A stretch of DNA of 50,290 bases from Candidatus Nomurabacteria bacterium (lineage in GTDB: Bacteria > Patescibacteriota > Minisyncoccia > Phycocordibacterales > UBA9973): positions 1 to 50,290 of the forward strand of contig JAHFNJ010000007.1 in assembly GCA_023267375.1 (NCBI GenBank), given 5' to 3'. The notes below the pieces were generated by a model. That model saw only the letters and a program-made list of their open reading frames with translations. It was not told the origin of the DNA and searched no databases. The first letter of the stretch is position 1. Each line of letters opens with the position of its first letter. Below, piece after piece: positions 1-45,698 of this stretch. The position numbers were made by a program, and so were the translations under genes.

Positions 1-1790
1 CAGACACCAGTGACGATAGATGGCGTATAGCCAACCGTCCAAGCGTCTTTGTTGTTGTTTGTGGTACCTGTTTTGACGGCGACTTCGCGTCCTGAGATTT
101 CAAGCGGGGAGTGTGCACCGAACGTCGGAATACGAGCTTGATTGTCGGAGAGGATTGAGGATACCTGTAGTGTGGCATCTCGTTCTACTACTTGCTGGCT
201 CTGGTCGGTGTATTGTTCGAGAATGTTTCCATTCGCATCTTCTACTTTAAGAATTGATGCATATGGGTGACGCACGCCTTCTTGAGCGAATACGCCGTAC
301 GCGCTCGTGATGTCGAGCAGAGAGACTTCGCCGCCTCCGATTACGAGCGTGAGTCCGTAGCGTGATGCATCGGTGAGTGTGTGGATGCCCATATCGCGTG
401 CGGTCTTGATCGCATCTGACACGCCGACCAAGTAGAGCATTTCAACAGCCGGAACGTTGATAGATTGTGCGAGCGCGTCGCGGAGGGTCATTGGTCCGCG
501 ATTTTTGTCATCGTAGTTTTGCGGATGGTAACAATTTGTTTGGCTGTGGCCAGGGAGTGCTTTGCCGTACGCATCACAGGTACTTTGAAATTCAAATGGC
601 AGGTCGAATACTACAGTGTCTGGTGTGTAGCCTTTTTCAAATGCAGAAAGGTAGATGAATGGTTTGAACGAGGAACCTGGTTGGCGGTTTGCGGTTGCGA
701 CGTTGAAGTTGCCGTCGATTTGTTTGTCGAAGTAATCGCGTGAGCCAACCATCGCCAAAATTTGTCCGGTCTTCGGATCGATAGAAACCAGCGCAGCATT
801 TTTTCCATTCCAGTCTTTTTCATTTTGCAGCGCGTGTTCGCGAGTGATCTCTTCCGCTTTTTGCTGGAGGTTGTAGTCGAGTGTCGTGATGACTTTGAGT
901 CCGCCCGATTCTACCGCGTCTGCGCCATATTTTTGTTCAAGATATTCTTTTATATAAAAGACGAAGTGCGGAGCTTTGATGCCGACTGGTTCTGCTGGTT
1001 TGAAGGTCACAGCTTCTTTGGCGGCTTTGTCGTATTCTTCCTGCGTGATGAAATTGAGTTCCTTCATGCGGGCGAGCACGGTATTTTTGCGTTCGTCGAG
1101 TTTGTCTTTATTTTTACCGTACGGAGAATAGTAGGTCGGTGCTTTTGGAATAGCGGCGATATACGCTGCTTCGGCGAGCGTGAGATCACCAGCATCTTTG
1201 CCGAAGAATTTCTTCGAAGCTTCCTCGACGCCATAGATTGATCCGCCGTAGGGGACTTCGTTCAAATAAATACCCAAAATGTCTTCTTTGCTGAGCGCTT
1301 TTTCTACTTTGAGCGAAAGTATCCACTCTTTGAGCTTACGGGTGATGGTTTTATCTGAATTTAAAAGGGTATTTTTGACGATCTGCTGGGTGATAGTCGA
1401 GCCGCCTTGCGCCAAGCCGCCTTTCTGGATATTTACCCAGACAGAGCGAAGAATGCCGCGGACACTGATGCCTTTGTGCTGGTAGAAAGCTGAGTCTTCA
1501 ATCGCCACCGTTGCGTTCTTTATATATGCCCCCATGTCGGTAAACGGGATAACAGTGCGCTTTACGCCGTCGTTCACGTCATAGAGAGCGACTTCGCCGG
1601 TGCGGTCGTAGATTTTGGTAGATTTTGCAACCTTGCGTTCGTCGAATGATTGAAAATCGGGAATATTGACGCGCGCGACAGCAATCAGGATGAATCCGAA
1701 GGAGATTATGCCGATACCTGCCACAGCGAGAAAGCTATTTATGAAAAGTCGTCGAGTCCAATGCTTCTTACGAGGATAATTTTGGTCCAT
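1..1790 (-). CDS. Class A penicillin-binding protein (PBP1A family, transglycosylase/transpeptidase); 3' end runs off the window
   Basis: Not in the ORF track because it is open-ended. Manual translation gives an N-terminal TM anchor, GT51 motifs (AIEDSAFYQHKG, GGSTITQQIVKN) and transpeptidase motifs RQPGSSFKP (SxxK), SINVP (SxN) and KTGT. An in-frame alternative ATG lies at 1796. Confidence 0.93.
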   Translation of the reverse strand, partial: MDQNYPRKKHWTRRLFINSFLAVAGIGIISFGFILIAVARVNIPDFQSFDERKVAKSTKIYDRTGEVALYDVNDGVKRTVIPFTDMGAYIKNATVAIEDSAFYQHKGISVRGILRSVWVNIQKGGLAQGGSTITQQIVKNTLLNSDKTITRKLKEWILSLKVEKALSKEDILGIYLNEVPYGGSIYGVEEASKKFFGKDAGDLTLAEAAYIAAIPKAPTYYSPYGKNKDKLDERKNTVLARMKELNFITQEEYDKAAKEAVTFKPAEPVGIKAPHFVFYIKEYLEQKYGADAVESGGLKVITTLDYNLQQKAEEITREHALQNEKDWNGKNAALVSIDPKTGQILAMVGSRDYFDKQIDGNFNVATANRQPGSSFKPFIYLSAFEKGYTPDTVVFDLPFEFQSTCDAYGKALPGHSQTNCYHPQNYDDKNRGPMTLRDALAQSINVPAVEMLYLVGVSDAIKTARDMGIHTLTDASRYGLTLVIGGGEVSLLDITSAYGVFAQEGVRHPYASILKVEDANGNILEQYTDQSQQVVERDATLQVSSILSDNQARIPTFGAHSPLEISGREVAVKTGTTNNNKDAWTVGYTPSIVTGV

Positions 1791-5173: not shown

Positions 5174-6223
5174 TTACTTGAAGAAGAAAAACCCGACGGC
5201 CATGATGGCATACGCCACCAGAAGCTGGACGCCTTCGAGCCAGTTTGATTCGCCGTCTTGGACAACGAGATTCGCAATAAAGACAGAGAAAATAATTGCC
5301 GCGAGTTCAAAGGTGTTGAAGACCAGACTCATTTGCTCTTGGAAAAAGAGACTGATCAAGACAAGAAGTGGCGCAGCGAGCATGGCGATCTGTGTTGCGG
5401 AGCCAATAGAAATCTGCAGTGATAAATCCATACGATTTTTCATTGCCATCGTGATAGCTGACGTGTGTTCAGCCGCATTACCAATGATGGCCACAAAGAC
5501 CACACCGATGAAAAGTTCGGTCCAGCCGAATGCTGCGACGATCGGTTCGATAGACGCAACAAGGATTTCAGAAAGAAATGCAACAAGGACAGTTGAGATA
5601 AAAAGAATAATGACACTTTTTTTGATGCTCCAATTTGGCTGCAGGTGCCCGACCTCTTCGGTGTAGAGGTGTTTGTGAGTAAAAAGCGAGAAAGAAATGC
5701 TCGCAATATAAGCCAGTATCATTAGTACTGAAACTATTATTGAGAGGTGTTCTATAACAACAGGGCCGTGGGTTGGTGCTGTTTGGAAAAATATGGCAGG
5801 GATGACAAGCGCGATGACGGCAAGCAAAAGAGTAGAAGAGCTTGCGAGAATTGCTGTCTTATTGAATGTCTGCTTTTTGTGGCGAGTACCACCAGCAATC
5901 ATTGCTGCTCCTAACACTAAAAGGAGGTTGCCGATAATCGAACCAGTTATAGATGCTTTTACTACTTCAATGAGTCCAGCTTTGAGTGCGAGTACGCCGA
6001 TAATTATCTCTGTTGCGTTGCCAAAGGTTGCATTCAAGAGTCCGCCAACCGCTGGACCAGTGTGTGAAGCGAGTTCTTCGGTGGCGTTACCGATATATTT
6101 TGCGAGCGGTATTATGCCGATTGCGGCGAAGAAGAATACCCATGTCGGGGCAACGTGCATCAATGATGCAATGATTGCGATCGGAACAAAAATAAGAAGC
6201 CCGTTAAGTATTTTTTCAAACAT
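5174..6223 (-). CDS. Ca2+/H+ exchanger (CAX/ChaA family)
   Basis: Alpha-repeats GGLLNATFGNATE and AIIGNAAEH, GESNWLEG, about 10 TM segments. Confidence 0.93.
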   Translation of the reverse strand: MFEKILNGLLIFVPIAIIASLMHVAPTWVFFFAAIGIIPLAKYIGNATEELASHTGPAVGGLLNATFGNATEIIIGVLALKAGLIEVVKASITGSIIGNLLLVLGAAMIAGGTRHKKQTFNKTAILASSSTLLLAVIALVIPAIFFQTAPTHGPVVIEHLSIIVSVLMILAYIASISFSLFTHKHLYTEEVGHLQPNWSIKKSVIILFISTVLVAFLSEILVASIEPIVAAFGWTELFIGVVFVAIIGNAAEHTSAITMAMKNRMDLSLQISIGSATQIAMLAAPLLVLISLFFQEQMSLVFNTFELAAIIFSVFIANLVVQDGESNWLEGVQLLVAYAIMAVGFFFFK

Positions 6224-28007: not shown

Positions 28008-30302
28008 ATGAGTACGAACGTCTACAAAATTAAAGGCATGCACTGTGCAAGTTGTGCCAGTATCATTGAACGGACCGTCAAAAAAATTGATGGGGTAGTC
28101 GACGTGTCGGTAAATAACGGGACGGAAAATGCCAAAATTTCTTTTGATCCAAACAAAGCCAGTCCGGAAATTTTTAATACAAAGTTGGAACCGTTGGGCT
28201 ATTCACTTATCGTTCCGCAAACTGCTAGTGAAATGGCGATGAGTGAGAGCGAACATGCGGCGCATCTGGGACTCCATCAATCAAAAAAAGAAAAACTAGC
28301 TGAAATTGCGTCGATGAAACGAATCGTTCTCTCGGTGATACCGCTTGCCATCATTAGTGTTTTTATAATGGGATGGGATATTTTTGCACAATTCCAATTA
28401 GTTGGAGAGATGCCATTAGTCTGGGAAGAATTTTTTCATCATTTACTCCCCATTATGGCGACGTACACACTTTTTGTAGCAGGAAAGCCATACCTGCTTG
28501 GGCTCTATCGCTTTATACGATATGGTAAGGCAAATATGGATACGTTGATCGGGCTCGGTACTTCTGTGGCGTTTCTCTACAGCTTCATTGCTAGTGCGTT
28601 TGAAGAGACGCTCCTTAAATCATTTCCAAATGTATCGACTACGTATTTTGATGTGACGATTATCGTCATTACATTTATCGCACTCGGAAAATATCTTGAA
28701 ACGCGCTCAAAATTAAAAACAGGTGATGCAATCGAAAAATTACTGAATCTCCAGGCGAAAACCGCGCTGGTTATTCGCGATGGCAAGGAAGTTGAATTAC
28801 CGATTGGGCAAGTCGTTCATGGTGATTTGGTTATTGTAAAACCGGCTGGGAAAATTCCCGTTGATGGTGTTGTTGTTGAAGGCAGTTCATATGTCGATGA
28901 ATCGATGATTACCGGAGAGCCAATGCCGGTGTCTAAAAAATCAGGGGACACTGTTGTCTCAGGGACCATAAACACCACGGGCTCATTTACCTTCAAAGCG
29001 ACAAAGGTTGGCGCTGAAACGATGCTTGCCACTATCGTTCGCATGGTTGAAGAGGCCCAAGGGAGCAAGGCGCCGATCCAGGCGCTCGCTGACAAAATCT
29101 CAAGTATTTTTGTACCGATTGTGCTCGGTATCGCCGTCCTGTCATTTGGTGCGTGGCTATTTTTTGGCACAGCATCGCTTGGCTTCTCGCAGGCACTTTC
29201 GTACGGACTCGTTTCGTTTGTCGGAGTGCTCGTGATTGCCTGTCCGTGTGCGCTTGGGCTTGCGACGCCAACCGCGATTATTGTGGGCGTAGGCAAAGGT
29301 GCTCGTGAAGGCATTTTAGTCAAAGATGCGAGTACACTTCAAAAGCTTCATAAAGTAAATGTTGTTGTCGTTGATAAAACAGGAACGATCACTAAAGGAA
29401 AACCAGAAATTGTCTCAACTAAAACTATCTCCGGCGAAGAGACAAAAAATCTTTCAATCTTAGCTTCGCTTGAAAACAAATCAGAACATCCAATCGCGCA
29501 TGCTATTGTTTCAAACCTCAAAGAAAAGCAGGGGAGCATGTTGCCTGTAGAAAAATTCGAAGCGCTGAAAGGGAGGGGGGTGAAAGGAACAATTGAGGGC
29601 ATCGACTATTTTGCGGGAAATACAAAACTAATTACGGATATGGGCATTACGTTTGATCTGCAATCAATTGAGAAAGAAACAATGGAAGGTAAAACCCCGG
29701 TTATATTGGCAACAAAGGAAAAAATTCTTTCTGTTGTCATGGTTGCTGATGCGGTAAAACCAGAAGCGATCGAAGCTGTACATAATTTACATAAACTTGG
29801 AGTAAGGGTGGTCATGCTCACCGGAGACAATGCAAATACGGCACGGCACATTGCGGATGTTATCGGTATCGATGAGGTCGTCGCAGAAGTAATGCCAGAG
29901 GATAAATTGAATAAAATAAAAGCATTGCAGTCAGAAGGAAAAATTGTCGCAATGGCGGGTGATGGAGTGAATGATGCCCCAGCGCTTGCGCAGGCGGATG
30001 TTGGCATCGCGATGGCAACGGGTACTGATGTGGCGATCGAGTCAGCCGGGATTACATTATTGCACGGAGATATTTCCAAATTGGTAAAAGCTGTTCGTCT
30101 GTCACGACTGACAATGCGCGGAATAAAACAGAATTTGTTCTGGGCATTCATTTACAACATCATCGGTATTCCGCTTGCAGCGGGATTATTCTTCCCGATT
30201 TTTGGGTGGTTATTGAATCCGGTTTTTGCAGGATTGGCGATGGCGATGAGTAGTGTCTCTGTGGTCGGGAATTCGTTACGAATTAAAAGTAAAAAATTAT
30301 AA
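28008..30302 (+). CDS. copA: Copper-translocating P1B-type ATPase
   Basis: MHCASC metal-binding domain, [26 protein letters not shown]...PL.AG, MAMSS. Confidence 0.96.
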
Positions 30303-30307
30303 ATTAT

Positions 30308-31312
30308 ATGCAAACATACACATTTCATGTTTCGGGTACACATTGTGCTTCATGTAAAATATTGATCGAAGATATTTTGAGTGAGCAGGGACTTGTGCGC
30401 GAAGTGCACGTCGATCTCAAAAAAGAAACGGTTACGGTCGCGACGACGAGCGATAAAGCACCGGAAGAACTCGCAAGTATTTTAACTGGCGCAATTGCAA
30501 AGAATGGCTATACGCTCTCCGTTGAGAAACTAAGCACTCCTCAAGATAATGGTGATATTTGGAAGGCGATACCAATCGGTCTCGCGTTTTTGGTGCTCTT
30601 TTTTATCCTACAGAAGTCTGGCCTTCTGAATCTTGGCATCGGTGGTGTGACAACTCCCGTGACGAGTTTTATCGTTGGGCTCATCGCTTCAGTTTCGAGT
30701 TGTTTGGCGATTGTTGGTGGCCTCGTCCTGTCTCTATCCGCTGAGGTTTCAAAAGATAACGTGAGTGATAAAAGAAACATTATCCTCTTTCATGTCGGTC
30801 GAGTTGGCGGGTTTGCATTGCTTGGTGGGGTGCTCGGATTGATAGGGGATGCTGTTGGGATCAACTTTGTGTTCACGGCAATCTTAGGATTGATTGCATC
30901 CCTTATTATGCTTCTACTAGGACTTGATCTTGTCGGTATTGCAAAAAAGAGCAAAGTCACCTTGCCCTCTGGAATCTTTAAATTTTTTAGACGTGTAGAA
31001 CATAAAACATTTACTCCGCTTATCATTGGTGTCGGCACATTTTTTTTGCCATGCGGGTTTACCCAGTCCATGCAGTTTGTGGCGCTCTCAAGTAGTTCAT
31101 TTATGACAGGGTTTCTCATTATGTTAGGATTTGCTTTAGGCACACTTCCGGTACTCGCGTTCCTTTCCTTTGGTTCGGCTTCGATTGCGCAATCAAAACA
31201 CGCACCGCTTTTCTTTAAATCGGCCGGAGTTGTCGTTATTGGGTTTGCAGTCTTTGCCTTACTTGCTGGCCTTGCAGGTCTCGGTATTATTAATCCTTTA
31301 TTTACAATATAA
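30308..31312 (+). CDS. HMA-domain plus TauE/SafE (DsbD_2)-like membrane protein
   Basis: N-terminal THCASC; SSCLAIVGG, FHVGR, FFLPCGFTQ..Q, FALGTLP. Confidence 0.82.
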   Translation: MQTYTFHVSGTHCASCKILIEDILSEQGLVREVHVDLKKETVTVATTSDKAPEELASILTGAIAKNGYTLSVEKLSTPQDNGDIWKAIPIGLAFLVLFFILQKSGLLNLGIGGVTTPVTSFIVGLIASVSSCLAIVGGLVLSLSAEVSKDNVSDKRNIILFHVGRVGGFALLGGVLGLIGDAVGINFVFTAILGLIASLIMLLLGLDLVGIAKKSKVTLPSGIFKFFRRVEHKTFTPLIIGVGTFFLPCGFTQSMQFVALSSSSFMTGFLIMLGFALGTLPVLAFLSFGSASIAQSKHAPLFFKSAGVVVIGFAVFALLAGLAGLGIINPLFTI

Positions 31313-31315
31313 GTT

Positions 31316-31708
31316 ATGAATAAAACAGTATCAGTTATTATTGCACTTATACTCATCGCCGGAATTGTGTATGTTGTTACCCGCCAGCCGGTAAAGAATA
31401 GCAGTAGTACTCAAGTCTTACAGAATGTTGAGGTGAAGGAGGGGATTCAGTATGTGACGATCGATGCGAAAGGAGGATACTCGCCGAGAATATCAACTGC
31501 AAAAGCCGGGATACCGACAAAGCTTATTGTTAAAACTGACGGTACGTATGATTGCTCGTCATCATTAGTTATAAACGAGATCAATTATAAAAAAATATTG
31601 CCTCAGACTGGCGAGACCGAAATAGATCTGGGGACCAAAAATGCCGGTGAAACACTGCAGGGTTTGTGCGGTATGGGGATGTACAATTTTCAGGTGAGGT
31701 TTGAGTAG
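31316..31708 (+). CDS. Membrane-anchored cupredoxin-domain protein
   Basis: GGYSP....AKAG.P..L, DCSSSL, C-terminal CGMGMY. Confidence 0.82.
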   Translation: MNKTVSVIIALILIAGIVYVVTRQPVKNSSSTQVLQNVEVKEGIQYVTIDAKGGYSPRISTAKAGIPTKLIVKTDGTYDCSSSLVINEINYKKILPQTGETEIDLGTKNAGETLQGLCGMGMYNFQVRFE

Positions 31709-31794
31709 GGGGTAGGAACCTTGATTCCCGTCGTAAGATACATTTGTGGTCAGGAATAACTTTTATTCCATCGAACAAAAAATTTCTCGATTTT

Positions 31795-31960
31795 GGCAGG
31801 AATCTTTCGTTACACGAACAGTATACCTTTTCCATGATTTTGAACAGAAGTTCAAAATCATAAGGAAAAGCTTTTCGATTCCTGACACAAAGTGCGCAGG
31901 CACTTTGTTCCGGGCGCACATATTAAAAAGACCGACATATAGTCGGTTCATTTAAATATG
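31795..31960 (-). repeat. tRNA-Lys-linked mirror element
   Basis: Inverted copy of the tRNA 3' half (31874-31884 plus 31910-31924) split by a 25-nt hairpin (31885-31909); distal sense copy GATTCCTGCC at 31795-31804. Confidence 0.75.
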
Positions 31961-32033
31961 TGCGCCCGGCAGGAATCGAACCTGCGACCATCTCCTTAAA
32001 AGGGAGCTGCTCTACCGACTGAGCTACGGGCGC
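31961..32033 (-). tRNA. tRNA-Lys (anticodon TTT)
   Basis: Cloverleaf: GCGCCCG/CGGGCGC acceptor, anticodon loop CTTTTAA, GGTTCGATTCC T-arm; CCA not encoded. Confidence 0.95.
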
Positions 32034-39995: not shown

Positions 39996-41033
39996 TTAAT
40001 TAGTAACTATTTTCCCATTCTCAACAATTTTTTTACCACGAATGACAACAGTTTCTGGTTTGCCGTAGAGCGTCATGCCTTCAAAAGGGGACCAGCCACA
40101 TTTTGTTTCGTACGGCGGAGTGACAACGTACTCTTTGTCTGGATCGAGCTCTATATATGTATCTCCCTGATCTGGAATATTAAAAATTTGTTTTGGCATG
40201 GAGTAGAGGAGCTTTGTCACTTGTTCTTTTTGGATGCGACCGTCCTTAACTCCTTTGAAAAGAAGTCCGACAGCAGTTTCGAGTCCTGGTACACCGAAGG
40301 CTGGCTGCTCCTTTTCCTTTTCTTCGCGAGTGTGTGGTGCATGGTCGGTCTCAACGATATCAATTGTGCCATCGTTGATCCCTACCCAAAGTGCGTCCAT
40401 ATCTTCTTGGGTGCCAAGTGGCGGTTTCATCATGGCGTAGCCTTTCAATTTTTCTCGCGCGTCACCAGTCATGTAGAGGTGGTGTGGACAGACACCAGCG
40501 GTGACTGGTTGACCGCTGGCTTTCGCCTTGCGGACGAGTTCCACTTCGATTGCTTGTGAGATATGACAGACATGCAAACGTCGTTGATACTTGAGTGCGA
40601 ATGCGAGCGCCATTTCAAGTTGCGCCCCTTCAGCGTGCACGAGAATCGGTTTTAAAGAATTCCACGCAGAGAATACTTTGTCGAGAAGGTCTTTATCCTC
40701 GATCAACATTTCTCCGGTAGTGTGGTTGCAGTAGAGTTTGAGCCCGAAGACCGAAGGGGAATCCCAGATTTTTGCGAACTCTTCGGTGTTGTGACCGTTT
40801 GTGCCGAAATGAAATCCGATATCGCAGAGCGCTTTCTTTGAAAGATCAACTTTTTCTTCAAGGCGCTCCTTTGTGATAGTTGGTGTTGGATTGTTTGGCA
40901 TGTCGACCATGAACGTAAAACCGCCGGCAATTGCAGCACGGGAACCTGTATAAAAATCCTCTTTATGAGTCGCGCCCGGCTCGCGTAGATGTACGTGTAC
41001 ATCAATGAACCCCGGGAATCGTTCGATAGACAT
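39996..41033 (-). CDS. pyrC: Dihydroorotase
   Basis: PGFIDVHVHLREPG, DMPNNP, HVCHIS, PHHL, KPPL, ETDHAPH, GVPGLET. Confidence 0.93.
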   Translation of the reverse strand: MSIERFPGFIDVHVHLREPGATHKEDFYTGSRAAIAGGFTFMVDMPNNPTPTITKERLEEKVDLSKKALCDIGFHFGTNGHNTEEFAKIWDSPSVFGLKLYCNHTTGEMLIEDKDLLDKVFSAWNSLKPILVHAEGAQLEMALAFALKYQRRLHVCHISQAIEVELVRKAKASGQPVTAGVCPHHLYMTGDAREKLKGYAMMKPPLGTQEDMDALWVGINDGTIDIVETDHAPHTREEKEKEQPAFGVPGLETAVGLLFKGVKDGRIQKEQVTKLLYSMPKQIFNIPDQGDTYIELDPDKEYVVTPPYETKCGWSPFEGMTLYGKPETVVIRGKKIVENGKIVTN

Positions 41034-41127
41034 ATATAGTACAGAGCTTATCATTTTTAGGGGTGGTGGCAAAGGGCACGCCCTTGCTAAATCTCAATTT
41101 TAGTGTAGATTAGTAAGGTGTTTAGAA

Positions 41128-41199
41128 GGCTCCGTCGTTCAATGGATAGGACGTAACTTTGCGGAAGTTATGATGCAGGTTCGATTCCTGCCGGAGTCA
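41128..41199 (+). tRNA. tRNA-Arg (anticodon GCG)
   Basis: GGCTCCG/CGGAGTC acceptor, TAACT-TTGCGGA-AGTTA anticodon arm, GCAGG-TTCGATT-CCTGC T-arm; CCA not encoded. Confidence 0.92.
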
Positions 41200-41409
41200 C
41201 TAGTACAAAAATGAGCCGTCTCGAAAGAGGCGGCCATTTTTGTTTAGTGACTCCGAGCGAGCAAACTGCTTTGCTCGCGTGCAGGAATCGAACAGCGGAG
41301 TCATGTTTTGCAAGCTTGCAAAACAGACGAGCTGGTGCCCAGACAAAACTTTTTGACGAAAAAGTTTTAGTCGAGGGCGATAAGCGTACTCGCGGTCCTG
41401 CCGGAGTCA
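41200..41409 (+). repeat. tRNA-Arg-linked mirror element
   Basis: Inverted copy of the tRNA 3' half (41245-41255 plus 41281-41293) split by a 25-nt hairpin; 51-nt core 41294-41344; sense copy TCCTGCCGGAGTCA at 41396-41409. Confidence 0.85.
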
Positions 41410-41418
41410 TCAGGGCTT

Positions 41419-41446
41419 CAAAAAAGCGCCCTCGGGCGCTTTTTTG
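41419..41446. terminator. Bidirectional terminator
   Basis: CAAAAAAGCGCC-ctcg-GGCGCTTTTTTG. Confidence 0.85.
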
Positions 41447-41460
41447 GATTCTATTTAAAT

Positions 41461-41925
41461 TTAAAATCCTAAGAAATCCATGATTCGATGTGACGCAGGT
41501 TCATCCATTTCTCGTTCTTTCATTTTTTTAAGAAGTGAGGTCTGGACCCGTTTCCAGTCAGCATTTCCTAGGGGGAGTGTGACGAGAGGCATAAACATGC
41601 GATCTGTTTCGAGGATAAGCTTGGGTTTGCGGTCTTTTGCAACAATTGCAAAACTTTTTATATGTTTGTAGTCATACGTGTAATGACTCACTTTCACACC
41701 ACGTTCAGTTATTTCAAAAGTCACTATTTGTGGCTTGCGGACACTATAGACAACAAGAAGTGAGACAGCAACCACAATGAAAACAGCAAAAAGAAAATTG
41801 CCGTAGATGATCGAAGCAACAACGGTACAAATTCCGATAATCCCAAGTGCCCAAAACCAGTCGGGCGACTTTGGTCGATCCTCATATTCAAGTGCTTCCC
41901 AGCTGATATGATCTCCAAATTGCAT
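41461..41925 (-). CDS. Membrane protein, DUF5673-like
   Basis: ISWEALEYEDRPKSPDWFW, two TM segments, then a PH-like soluble domain. Confidence 0.65.
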   Translation of the reverse strand: MQFGDHISWEALEYEDRPKSPDWFWALGIIGICTVVASIIYGNFLFAVFIVVAVSLLVVYSVRKPQIVTFEITERGVKVSHYTYDYKHIKSFAIVAKDRKPKLILETDRMFMPLVTLPLGNADWKRVQTSLLKKMKEREMDEPASHRIMDFLGF

Positions 41926-44945: not shown

Positions 44946-45065
44946 ACTGACAGGGTAGCATGAAAATGGAGGAATTAAAGAGATTCGCCCGCGACTAAAA
45001 AATCGCCGAAACAGGATGAGATTCTCCCCGTACCGGGGCAGTACAGGTTTCCGAAAAAATAATAC

Positions 45066-45253
45066 AGCGAGATTCGCCCGCGACTCTCGCCTCGTCGTCA
45101 CTCAGCTCGGTCTGGGCACCAGCTCATCTGTTTCGCAAGCTTGCGAAACATGATTCCGCTGTTCGAATCTCACACGCGAAGTGCGCAGGCACTTCGCTCG
45201 CCTCCGCAAACAAAAATGGCCCCGACCAAAGTCGGAGCTCATTTTTGTATTTG
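45066..45253 (-). repeat. tRNA-Ser-linked mirror element
   Basis: Inverted copy of the tRNA 3' half (45161-45173 plus 45199-45210) split by a 25-nt hairpin; 51-nt core 45110-45160; short distal sense copy 45069-45076. Confidence 0.85.
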
Positions 45254-45340
45254 CGGAGGCGGTGAGATTCGAACTCACGGTCCACTTTCATGGACGACAG
45301 TTTTCAAGACTGTTGCCTTAAACCACTCAGCCACACCTCC
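45254..45340 (-). tRNA. tRNA-Ser (anticodon TGA)
   Basis: GGAGGTG/CGCCTCC acceptor, G discriminator, ACAGT-CTTGAAA-ACTGT anticodon arm, long variable arm; CCA not encoded. Confidence 0.95.
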
Positions 45341-45425: not shown

Positions 45426-45698
45426 TTAGTGATGGGTGTTTTCTGTGTGTGCCTCATGGTGCTGGTCTTTCTTTAGTGCATTTCTCACGAGATCCCTCAC
45501 TTCCTTGGGTTTCTTCTTAACCACCCAGAAAATGTAGTAAATTTCGAGTATAGAGAGGGTGTTTACGATAAGGAGTACGATAAACCACCATTTTTCCTTT
45601 CGTTCAGCGGCCAGCCAAAGGGCGTACCCCTTCCAAGGAAGGATCCATACAATGACGAGTATAATGAGGACGATATTTCCATACCAGACGCTTACCAT
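45426..45698 (-). CDS. DUF5652-like small membrane protein
   Basis: W.LPWKGYALW.AA...KWWFI.LL..NTL.ILEI.YIF. Confidence 0.75.
   Translation of the reverse strand: MVSVWYGNIVLIILVIVWILPWKGYALWLAAERKEKWWFIVLLIVNTLSILEIYYIFWVVKKKPKEVRDLVRNALKKDQHHEAHTENTHH

Follow-up and report, generated by a model that had tools for sequence, protein, structure and literature searches.

Several groups of described elements have features in common with the elements reported here. Integrase-driven elements of tRNA and transfer-messenger RNA (tmRNA) genes, in particular the class for which the T-loop is the sublocation, carry the 3′ part of the target gene, such that the gene is regenerated and its displaced tail is left as a direct repeat. 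Elements of the insertion sequence (IS) group IS200/IS605 (IS608 being the model, with PATEs and REP/RAYT) have no terminal inverted repeats, have subterminal hairpins at both ends and fold as one specific single strand; the cleavage site or the target is recognised through pairing with 4 nt of the element that lie 5′ of a hairpin, and insertion is 3′ of a short conserved motif. In the integron attC site and the attP(+) site of CTX phage, which are used by IntI and XerCD, imperfect inverted repeats of one strand fold into a duplex that imitates a double-stranded target, and extrahelical bulges mark the strand. In IS110/IS1111 elements, target specificity is modular and encoded in nucleic acid, in guide segments that flank a stem-loop; in the IS621-type bridge-RNA loop, each half binds a different DNA strand, with 8-9 and 4-7 nt paired around a core of 2 nt (PMC11208160). 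The subject of this report is an element that lies 3′ of the gene for tRNA-Lys(ttt) in a stretch of 50,290 nt from Candidatus Nomurabacteria bacterium (contig JAHFNJ010000007.1, positions 1 to 50,290, assembly GCA_023267375.1), which is here called the window. This element is probably one copy, with a body of type B, of a miniature (about 150-250 nt), protein-less family that inserts site-specifically into the T-loop of tRNA and tmRNA genes in the candidate phyla radiation (CPR, Patescibacteria).

There are three tRNA genes in the window: Lys(ttt), Arg(gcg) and Ser(tga), none of which encodes the terminal CCA. The same layout follows the 3′ end of all three (positions are window coordinates, and the parts of the elements are given in tRNA orientation, i.e., on the tRNA-sense strand). 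A trailer with a hairpin is followed by mirror A, which is the reverse complement of the acceptor 3′ strand and of bases of the trailer; by H1, a covarying hairpin of about 22 nt with the loop CTGC; by mirror B, the reverse complement of the T-stem 3′ strand and the T-loop; and then by a body, a right end and a second 3′ part of the tRNA in sense orientation. H1 splits the mirror at the junction of T-stem and acceptor stem. The right-end hairpin of all three elements finishes with (C/A)GA-N59, and next comes the displaced tRNA 3′ end, a direct copy that begins within the T-loop.

The observation is real and chance is excluded, because three results agree. The longest reverse-complement match in the Lys trailer is 15 nt, against a maximum of 11 nt in 2000 dinucleotide shuffles (the initial annotation of this DNA had held such matches to be unlikely in shuffled trailers), and the folding z-scores are -15.7 for Lys and -14.1 for Arg. 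In a sample of 53 tRNAs from CPR loci, which is biased, having been fetched for holding at least one element, a 12-nt complement of the T-loop and T-stem (up to 1 mismatch) lies within 260 nt downstream of 34 of the 53 and upstream of none. In the same biased sample a mirror (up to 1 mismatch) stands behind 3 of 13 tRNAs with encoded CCA, as opposed to 31 of 40 without it.

At the Lys locus, the initial annotation had described an inverted copy of the tRNA end, a 30-nt hairpin spacer and a 25-nt insert, all of which are present. The mirror pieces are exact reverse complements of T54-N64 and of N65-A73 plus 5 trailer bases; in the family-wide scheme the mirror is split at 65|66, and the Lys junction is off by one base, the complement of C65 going with mirror A. 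The insert was said to differ from that of tRNA-Ser at four bases with the stem kept, and indeed there are two compensatory pairs (A-T to G-C, twice) around an identical CTGC loop. It was also read correctly that the core of the Arg and Ser elements is missing, with the hairpin ATGATTTTGAAC-agaa-GTTCAAAATCAT standing in its place, and that a distal sense copy lies about 160 nt from the tRNA: it was found 156-165 nt 3′ of the gene. Further downstream, a segment shaped like a right-end junction with filler and a decayed tRNA tail suggests an earlier insertion at this gene.

The broader proposal of the annotation, that the layout of mirror, insert and distal copy is the conserved unit and the body is exchangeable, is supported: the same layout occurs with at least two unrelated bodies, each of which covaries. 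Types A (Arg and Ser) and B (Lys) have in common the split mirror, the H1 with its CTGC loop and the rule for the right junction, and do not have the body in common. The layout of type B is GAA, a long hairpin (AAGCTTTTC..GAAAAGG, or the covarying GCCCnnTTG..CAAnnGGGG), TACTG, a 4-5-bp stem with the loop TGTAA, and (C/A)GA-N59. In addition to the window Lys locus, it is present in L007, L008, L011 (twice), L100, L115, L136 and L154, i.e., in at least seven other CPR contigs (L-numbers are labels for other contigs that carry elements). The lower stem is CTTTTCC/GGAAAAG in Lys as against GCCCnnTTG/CAAnnGGGG in the relatives; at the right end, TACTG and TGTAA are invariant and the 4-bp stem covaries in seven sequences; and the RNAalifold consensus has compensatory changes in 17 of 24 pairs. 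As judged from these alignments, the Lys body is a conserved family of its own and not idiosyncratic filler. The second element of L005 probably represents a third body type, and the related tRNA-Gln loci of L114 and L116 have spacer and mirror design in common with different type A sub-bodies.

The order of type A on the tRNA-sense strand is copy 1 (the 3′ part of the tRNA itself), an apex hairpin or a short spacer of the GAACGAAGTG type, mirror A, H1, mirror B, a stem S1 enclosing P2, GTG, H3, and (C/A)-N57-A58-N59. H1 has a 9-bp stem and the loop CTGC or CAAT, with compensatory changes at all 9 pairs among 40 copies. S1 is CAGC:GCTG, or in divergent copies CGCC:GGCG or CGGC:GCCG. H3 is a long hairpin, CCC-AG-AC...loop GACG...GT-CGN-GGG, in which the CCC:GGG pairing swaps to ACT:AGT, ACC:GGT, GCC:GGC or TCC:GGA. 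In the type A alignment (A2), 92.7% of cells are paired and compensatory changes are seen in 29 of 41 pairs; none of 500 shuffles reaches the observed values, and slid registers are also far off. Tandem G·A pairs are common, and there are 45 G·T pairs as against 9 A·C pairs on the tRNA-sense strand. From this excess of G·T it follows that the structure belongs to the tRNA-sense strand as a single strand, be it DNA or RNA.

Several variants of the elements were seen. A hairpin module of about 31 nt (CCTTCGGCTCTGAGAGCTyCAGGCTCGATGAG) lies within mirror B, just 5′ of the type A core, in L088 (about 5440-5475, minus strand) and also in L167 and L186; it is absent from the otherwise near-identical copy in L115, thus small hairpin modules come and go within the mirror. 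Mirror B reads ..GAGAAC instead of ..TCGAAC in L010, L015, L116, L128 and L138; there, A-G opposes G57-A58 of the T-loop, giving a tandem G·A mismatch right beside the insertion junction proposed below. In L003, L077, L157, L166, L114 and L116 an alternative short spacer (GAACGAAGTGArTGAG or GGAACGCAGTG) takes the place of the terminator hairpin. Mirror A is degenerate in some of these short-spacer copies, and mini-hairpins of the GCGAAGC type are met repeatedly, both in spacers and in fillers.

An exact 21-mer of the core of the Arg and Ser elements was found in 15 contigs among 185,579 species genomes. Twelve of these contigs are named as CPR/Patescibacteria metagenome-assembled genomes (Taylorbacteria, Yonathbacteria, Lloydbacteria, Minisyncoccia, "Saccharibacteria") and three are labelled "bacterium". 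The core lies about 110-130 nt 3′ of a tRNA or tmRNA in 12 of the 15; of the other three, most either have a T-arm and 3′ end resembling those of a tRNA upstream or are cut contigs. With the left core as query, about 40 further genuine copies were obtained from metagenomes, besides chance matches in coding sequence. More than 50 type A copies have been located in CPR contigs beyond window Arg and Ser, behind tRNAs for 13 amino acids (Arg, Ser, Pro, Gly, Lys, Tyr, His, Gln, Thr, Leu, Phe, Trp and Ile; 14 when window Lys is added) and behind one tmRNA, and each mirror that was parsed fits its own gene. A covariance model (CM), the kind of search the initial annotation had suggested, was built from 40 type A copies and finds 78 matches in 53 contigs, the strong ones all 3′ of tRNA or tmRNA genes; in the window it matches Arg and Ser and not Lys. 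All four tRNAs of L182 and all three of the window are occupied. In the groundwater metagenomes from which the window derives (DNA runs X1-X3, which hold the window), contigs across 40800-41800 break at the tRNA and at the core, and the summed depth of the core is 5-15 times that of the flank; therefore, the element is a high-copy repeat across that groundwater community. No excision joint was seen in X1-X3, for which contigs only were searched.

Known families did not account for the elements. Against Rfam, only tRNA was matched at the gathering threshold and nothing credible at E values up to 10. A scan of IMG/VR viral contigs with a 16-mer of the core gave 60 matches, all of them chance coding sequence, and BLAST against GenBank phages and PLSDB plasmids gave no similar sequence. 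Hammerhead-like, twister, HDV, and group I and II intron readings were rejected by eye: the order of motifs is wrong, no model matches, and the distal "exon" decays. A literature search, which included the core sequence as text, returned no description of such elements. The elements, which are CPR-wide and sit in the T-loop of most sampled tRNA and tmRNA genes, appear to be a family that has not been described before. As to genes without one, L128 has a tRNA-Arg(cct) with encoded CCA (1479-1553, plus strand) and no mirror element, and a type A element elsewhere on the same contig; a near-identical tRNA-Arg in L011/L192 is without CCA and has two type B elements.

That the layout results from insertion can be seen at its distal end. 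Each element apparently supplies a tRNA 3′ end of its own, in most cases together with a terminator, such that the gene stays intact while the original 3′ end is displaced downstream. The distal copy repeats the tRNA 3′ end directly over 13-31 nt, from a first base between C56 and C61 up to 0-15 nt past the discriminator; being the displaced original 3′ end, it implies insertion, and being frequently decayed (window Ser, window Lys, L012, L015), it is not under selection. Elements are also stacked at one tRNA: type A and then another type in L005, A and then B in L007, two of type B at Arg in L011 and two at His in L182, while at the window Ser locus a complete type A is followed by a type-B-like right end and, beyond it, by a further right end of type A. 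At one tRNA-Arg locus, the native flank of which is the same, L088 has a single copy as against two tandem copies in the related strains L115 and L142. Subfamilies are common to different organisms at different tRNAs, yet differ within one genome; the H3 of window Arg, for example, is identical to that of L014, L105, L114 and L155, yet unlike that of window Ser. Taking these features together, it is more probable that the elements are, or were, mobile insertion elements than that they are not; confidence in any one specific mechanism is lower.

The position of the junction can be approached from the right end. N59 of the right end agrees with the target T-loop in 39 of 41 copies and N57 in 35 of 36, and this holds even where a family-specific filler separates N59 from T60. 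The filler is either absent, or 2 nt ("AY"), or a mini-hairpin of 11-14 nt (e.g. AAGCGTACTCGCGG in window Arg). It is inherited with the subfamily and therefore lies inside the element, and the element therefore carries a mimic of C56-N59 at its right end. Most simply, then, the insertion junction would be N59|T60.

The 3′ ends of tRNA and tmRNA genes are classic integrase targets, for which repeats starting in the T-loop are typical, so that the elements might be leftover attL ends of ordinary integrase-driven islands or prophages, if not artefacts of assembly or chance. Such readings are disfavoured and scarcely credible. The right end and displaced tail follow within 150-250 nt, after which come native terminators and housekeeping genes; the viral contigs, phages and plasmids hold no matches; more than 50 independent contigs from many studies carry elements; and the shuffle tests rule out chance. 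The flanks inspected consist of housekeeping genes with no recombinase, neither an adjacent tyrosine or serine integrase nor kilobase-scale cargo was found, and no cargo-bearing or autonomous copy was detected when the first direct copy was sought within 6 kb of each tRNA, the distance from tRNA to distal copy being at most 374 nt in all cases. The elements thus differ from integrase elements in being 100-fold smaller, in lacking an integrase, in having an internal antisense mirror and in serving many tRNA targets with one family. They also do not conform to miniature inverted-repeat transposable elements: tail and mirror form an inverted repeat that lies internally rather than at the termini, the two ends are dissimilar, and the flanking repeat varies between 13 and 31 nt where a duplication of fixed length would be expected.

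A function for the host is a more serious alternative, though an unlikely one. The elements would then be vertically inherited cis parts of tRNA transcription units, in which a terminator and a structured antisense RNA or DNA hairpin regulate 3′ processing, sequester 3′ halves or insulate the gene, and local duplication would be the origin of the direct copies. Among the sampled tRNAs without CCA, nearly all have an element, the structure is under strong purifying constraint, the apex terminator is present in most copies, element sequence occurs in several metatranscriptomes, and the same spacer is kept at the related tRNA-Gln loci. However, the distal copies decay, different body families are stacked at one tRNA, one subfamily is found at different tRNAs in different organisms, and some CPR tRNAs have no element, such as the CCA-encoding Arg(cct) of L128. 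In addition, the terminator precedes the mirror, and sense transcription of the mirror would require read-through.

Of the described guided systems, IS110/IS1111 might come to mind, since a guide-hairpin-guide layout superficially resembles the binding loop; the elements would be IS110/IS1111-derived miniatures, with the body as bridge or seek RNA and the mirror as its target-binding loop. In L127 (5066-5444, plus strand), a type A fragment without an upstream tRNA directly precedes a sequence for the C-terminal portion of an IS110-family transposase (Pfam Transposase_20, E = 2e-12). However, this transposase fragment lacks the N-terminal domain and is the only such adjacency among about 54 copies; no open reading frame lies within any copy, and tblastn with the L127 fragment matches L127 only. 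Both mirror halves, of about 11-13 nt each, complement the same (tRNA-sense) strand contiguously, over about 24 nt in total; the flanking repeat is 13-31 nt rather than a 2-nt core; and types A and B share the mirror and not the body. Membership of the bridge-RNA group fails, and descent from IS110/IS1111 is very improbable. A reading in the style of TnpB and omega-RNA (scaffold plus flank as guide) was also rejected: the occupied site keeps the same 14-24 nt target beside GTTCGA and would hence be self-targeting.

The nearest working analogies may be IS200/IS605 and the folded-att systems. With IS200/IS605, the elements share the absence of terminal inverted repeats, the hairpins at both ends and a covarying fold of one strand, as the excess of G·T pairs attests; the junction would lie 3′ of ..CGA-N59, and seamless restoration of the donor is conceivable. 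The guide is, however, about 24 nt long, split around the hairpin H1 and 3′ of it, and the flanking repeat may be element-borne or target-derived. Also, the target is a gene-internal T-loop, such that the element must carry a replacement gene end, and the right end mimics the target. No Y1 HUH transposase (TnpA) was found in the flanks inspected. As for attC and CTX attP(+), the duplex of copy and mirror, when folded in silico, has bulges at 65|66 (H1) and 59|60 (filler), and exchange of a single strand would explain why only one strand is structured. The differences here are that the target is the tRNA T-loop and not attI or dif, that the elements are 200 nt long without cargo or a linked recombinase, and that the T-loop GTTCGAW is, by eye, unlike the GTTRRRY of the attC R and L boxes. 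Lastly, as with the EBS/IBS (exon- and intron-binding site) pairing of group II introns, the inserted element stays complementary to its own flank, and, as in tmRNA and viral tRNA-like structures, the duplex of mirror and tail, taken with H1, is topologically a one-armed acceptor/T minihelix; nevertheless, there are no intron domains, no Rfam match and no sign of aminoacylation or splicing, and the T-loop is paired rather than free.

Bearing these analogies in mind, the following scheme can be drawn. The element would be non-autonomous and would be moved in trans via a single-stranded intermediate. When its right end is joined to its left end, in a joined or circular single strand, a full sense segment from T54 to the trailer would arise and could pair with the mirror, leaving bulges at 59|60 (filler) and 65|66 (H1). 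This fold would be a three-way junction resembling a tRNA minihelix, with one arm at the place where the D and anticodon arms leave the tRNA, i.e., a target image borne by the element, which a trans-acting enzyme could use to choose the T-loop of a matching gene and to cut or join it. The enzyme could be an IS200/IS605-type single-strand transposase, for which the mirror would serve as an extended guide in cis; alternatively, it could be a tyrosine recombinase whose att site is a folded single strand, with the mirror as the second strand of that site, as in integron attC and CTX phage. Type A, type B and the other bodies would be interchangeable scaffolds. In its full form, the proposal is a new class of protein-less, nucleic-acid-guided mobile elements, in which a cis antisense target image programs a host or trans enzyme to insert at N59|T60 of the matching tRNA or tmRNA, with a guide that is rewritable for any tRNA, possibly through copying of the target during insertion. 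This proposal is tentative, and it is held with less than even confidence.

Possibly, the intermediate is RNA rather than DNA. In that case, a transcript from the mirror to copy 2, with its ends folded as a tRNA-like acceptor/T stem (as in tmRNA or retroplasmids), would be the template of a reverse transcriptase, with target- or homology-primed synthesis at insertion, which would leave variable, target-derived repeats. Contigs of 164-186 nt that span mirror A to copy 2 are present in sludge and digester metatranscriptomes; they are of low depth, their strand is not given by the data, and DNA carry-over is possible. The RNA runs hold the presence of the element only, without strand or defined ends. 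The varying length of the repeat (13-31 nt), its reach into the native trailer, the tRNA-minihelix topology of the fold of mirror and copy, the G·T wobbles and the tandem G·A pairs are all in keeping with RNA. On the other hand, no reverse transcriptase is nearby, and many copy 2 segments are too decayed for the fold. The terminator hairpin sits directly 5′ of the mirror in most copies and therefore leaves no room for a sense promoter, a position that mildly favours DNA over RNA. Movement by way of RNA is thus rather improbable.

Several points weigh against mobile, guided elements as proposed above. No transposase, recombinase or reverse transcriptase is found in or beside about 54 copies, the IS110 fragment in L127 being the sole exception, and neither a pair of empty and occupied sites at a truly orthologous locus nor a circle junction was seen. 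The polymorphism of one versus two copies could be explained by unequal crossing-over between direct repeats. For retargeting, copy 1, both mirrors (A and B) and the right-end mimic would all have to change together, and the proposal gives no route for this. The trailer of the newest element in L011 equals the native trailer over 15 nt, and repeats run into the trailer more than by chance; this would fit a target-derived duplication better than a pre-formed copy and hints that the tail is copied from the target during insertion. The near-saturation of tRNA genes (window and L182) would also fit a host function, and the occurrence of element sequence in metatranscriptome assemblies may leave room for an RNA intermediate or function.

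The features of the three loci are given in the table. At the Lys locus, a copper/heavy-metal cluster on the plus strand (28008-31708: a P-type ATPase with an HMA domain, a DsbD_2-HMA membrane protein and a cupredoxin-like protein) ends with a stop codon (31708) about 36-37 nt from the start of the scar (31746), and its transcription converges on the bidirectional hairpin of the Lys element. Sister strains were sought by exact-protein lookup of the gene adjoining tRNA-Lys, and no record was found. The hairpin directly 3′ of the displaced tRNA-Arg tail is presumably the original terminator of the tRNA-Arg gene. Small proteins adjoin the Arg locus (41461-41925, minus strand; DUF5673, a weak match below the Pfam cut-off) and the Ser locus (45426-45698, minus strand; DUF5652), which is probably coincidental.

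Table. Features of the Lys, Arg and Ser loci in window coordinates, listed for each locus from the tRNA gene outwards
Feature	Position	Strand	Basis or remark
tRNA-Lys(ttt)	31961-32033	-	ARAGORN; Rfam tRNA, 74 bits; no CCA encoded
Lys copy 1, tRNA 3′ part (T60 at 31974 to A73 at 31961)	31961-31974	-	presumably supplied by the element
Lys trailer and apex hairpin	31924-31960	-	terminator scan, fold; flanks extend the pairing of tRNA tail and mirror A
Lys intrinsic-terminator-like stem, then CTTTTT	31931-31947	-	terminator scan, consensus match only; within the 30-nt spacer
Lys mirror A, ATATGTGCGCCCGG	31910-31923	-	reverse complement of C65, acceptor 3′ strand, discriminator and 5 trailer bases; plus strand reads CCGGGCGCACATAT(T) at 31910-31924
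Lys H1, 9-bp stem ACAAAGTGC/GCACTTTGT, loop CTGC	31887-31908	-	at T-stem/acceptor junction of mirror; plus strand of the 25-nt insert reads ACACAAAGTGC-GCAG-GCACTTTGTT at 31885-31909
Lys mirror B, CAGGAATCGAA	31874-31884	-	reverse complement of T54-N64 (T-loop and T-stem 3′ strand); plus strand reads TTCGATTCCTG
Lys type B body, long hairpin	31824-31873	-	fold, comparison with relatives; lower stem CTTTTCC/GGAAAAG, upper stem ATGATTTTGAAC/GTTCAAAATCAT (hairpin 31834-31861)
Lys type B right end: TACTG, hairpin TTCG-TGTAA-CGAA, A-G57-A58-T59	31802-31823	-	A-G57-A58-T59 mimics the 5′ half of the T-loop
Lys copy 2, TCCTGCC (T60-C66 of the displaced original 3′ end)	31795-31801	-	decayed further downstream; with preceding GAT, GATTCCTGCC at 31795-31804
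Lys putative older scar: GTTCGAT, 14-nt filler GGAATAAAAGTTAT, TCCTGACCAC	31746-31776	-	sequence compared with filler rule
tRNA-Arg(gcg)	41128-41199	+	ARAGORN, Rfam
Arg type A element	41186-41409	+	CM, 140.5 bits
Arg copy 1	41186-41199	+	
Arg terminator hairpin	41215-41234	+	terminator scan, consensus match only
Arg mirror A	41245-41255	+	
Arg H1	41257-41278	+	
Arg mirror B	41281-41292	+	
Arg S1/P2	41293-41334	+	
Arg H3	41338-41377	+	
Arg CGA-T59	41378-41381	+	
Arg 14-nt filler hairpin, AAGCGTACTCGCGG	41382-41395	+	
Arg copy 2	41396-41409	+	
Arg second strong terminator-like hairpin, AAAAAAGCGCCCTCGGGCGCTTTTTT	41417-41448	+	directly 3′ of displaced tRNA-Arg tail
tRNA-Ser(tga)	45253-45340	-	ARAGORN, Rfam
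Ser type A element	45074-45267	-	CM, 126.6 bits
Ser copy 1	45254-45267	-	
Ser mirror A	45199-45210	-	
Ser H1	45176-45197	-	
Ser mirror B	45162-45173	-	
Ser S1/P2	about 45120-45161	-	
Ser H3	45077-45116	-	
Ser right end, AGTCGCGGGCGA	45074-45085	-	
Scar stack behind Ser element	44980-45073	-	sequence comparison
Ser scar: decayed copy 2, ATCTCGC	from 45073	-	
Ser scar: type-B-like right end, TACTG-CCCCG-GTA-CGGGG-AGA with ATCTCATCC	45014-45043	-	
Ser scar: second type A right end, AGTCGCGGGCGA with ATCTC	44980-44996	-	

If the elements are what they are proposed to be, most sampled tRNA genes of a major bacterial radiation would carry an unannotated passenger that rewrites the 3′ end of the gene, and the tRNA flanks, terminators and "intergenic" space of CPR genomes would need to be re-annotated. 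One scaffold would reach the tRNAs of 13 amino acids (14 with window Lys) and a tmRNA by changing its complementary segments, which would be a hallmark of programmable targeting, and the enzyme behind the elements could be a compact guided inserter with a long specificity of about 24 nt. In the stacked, decaying copies, the history of one invasion after another at a single fixed site could then be read.

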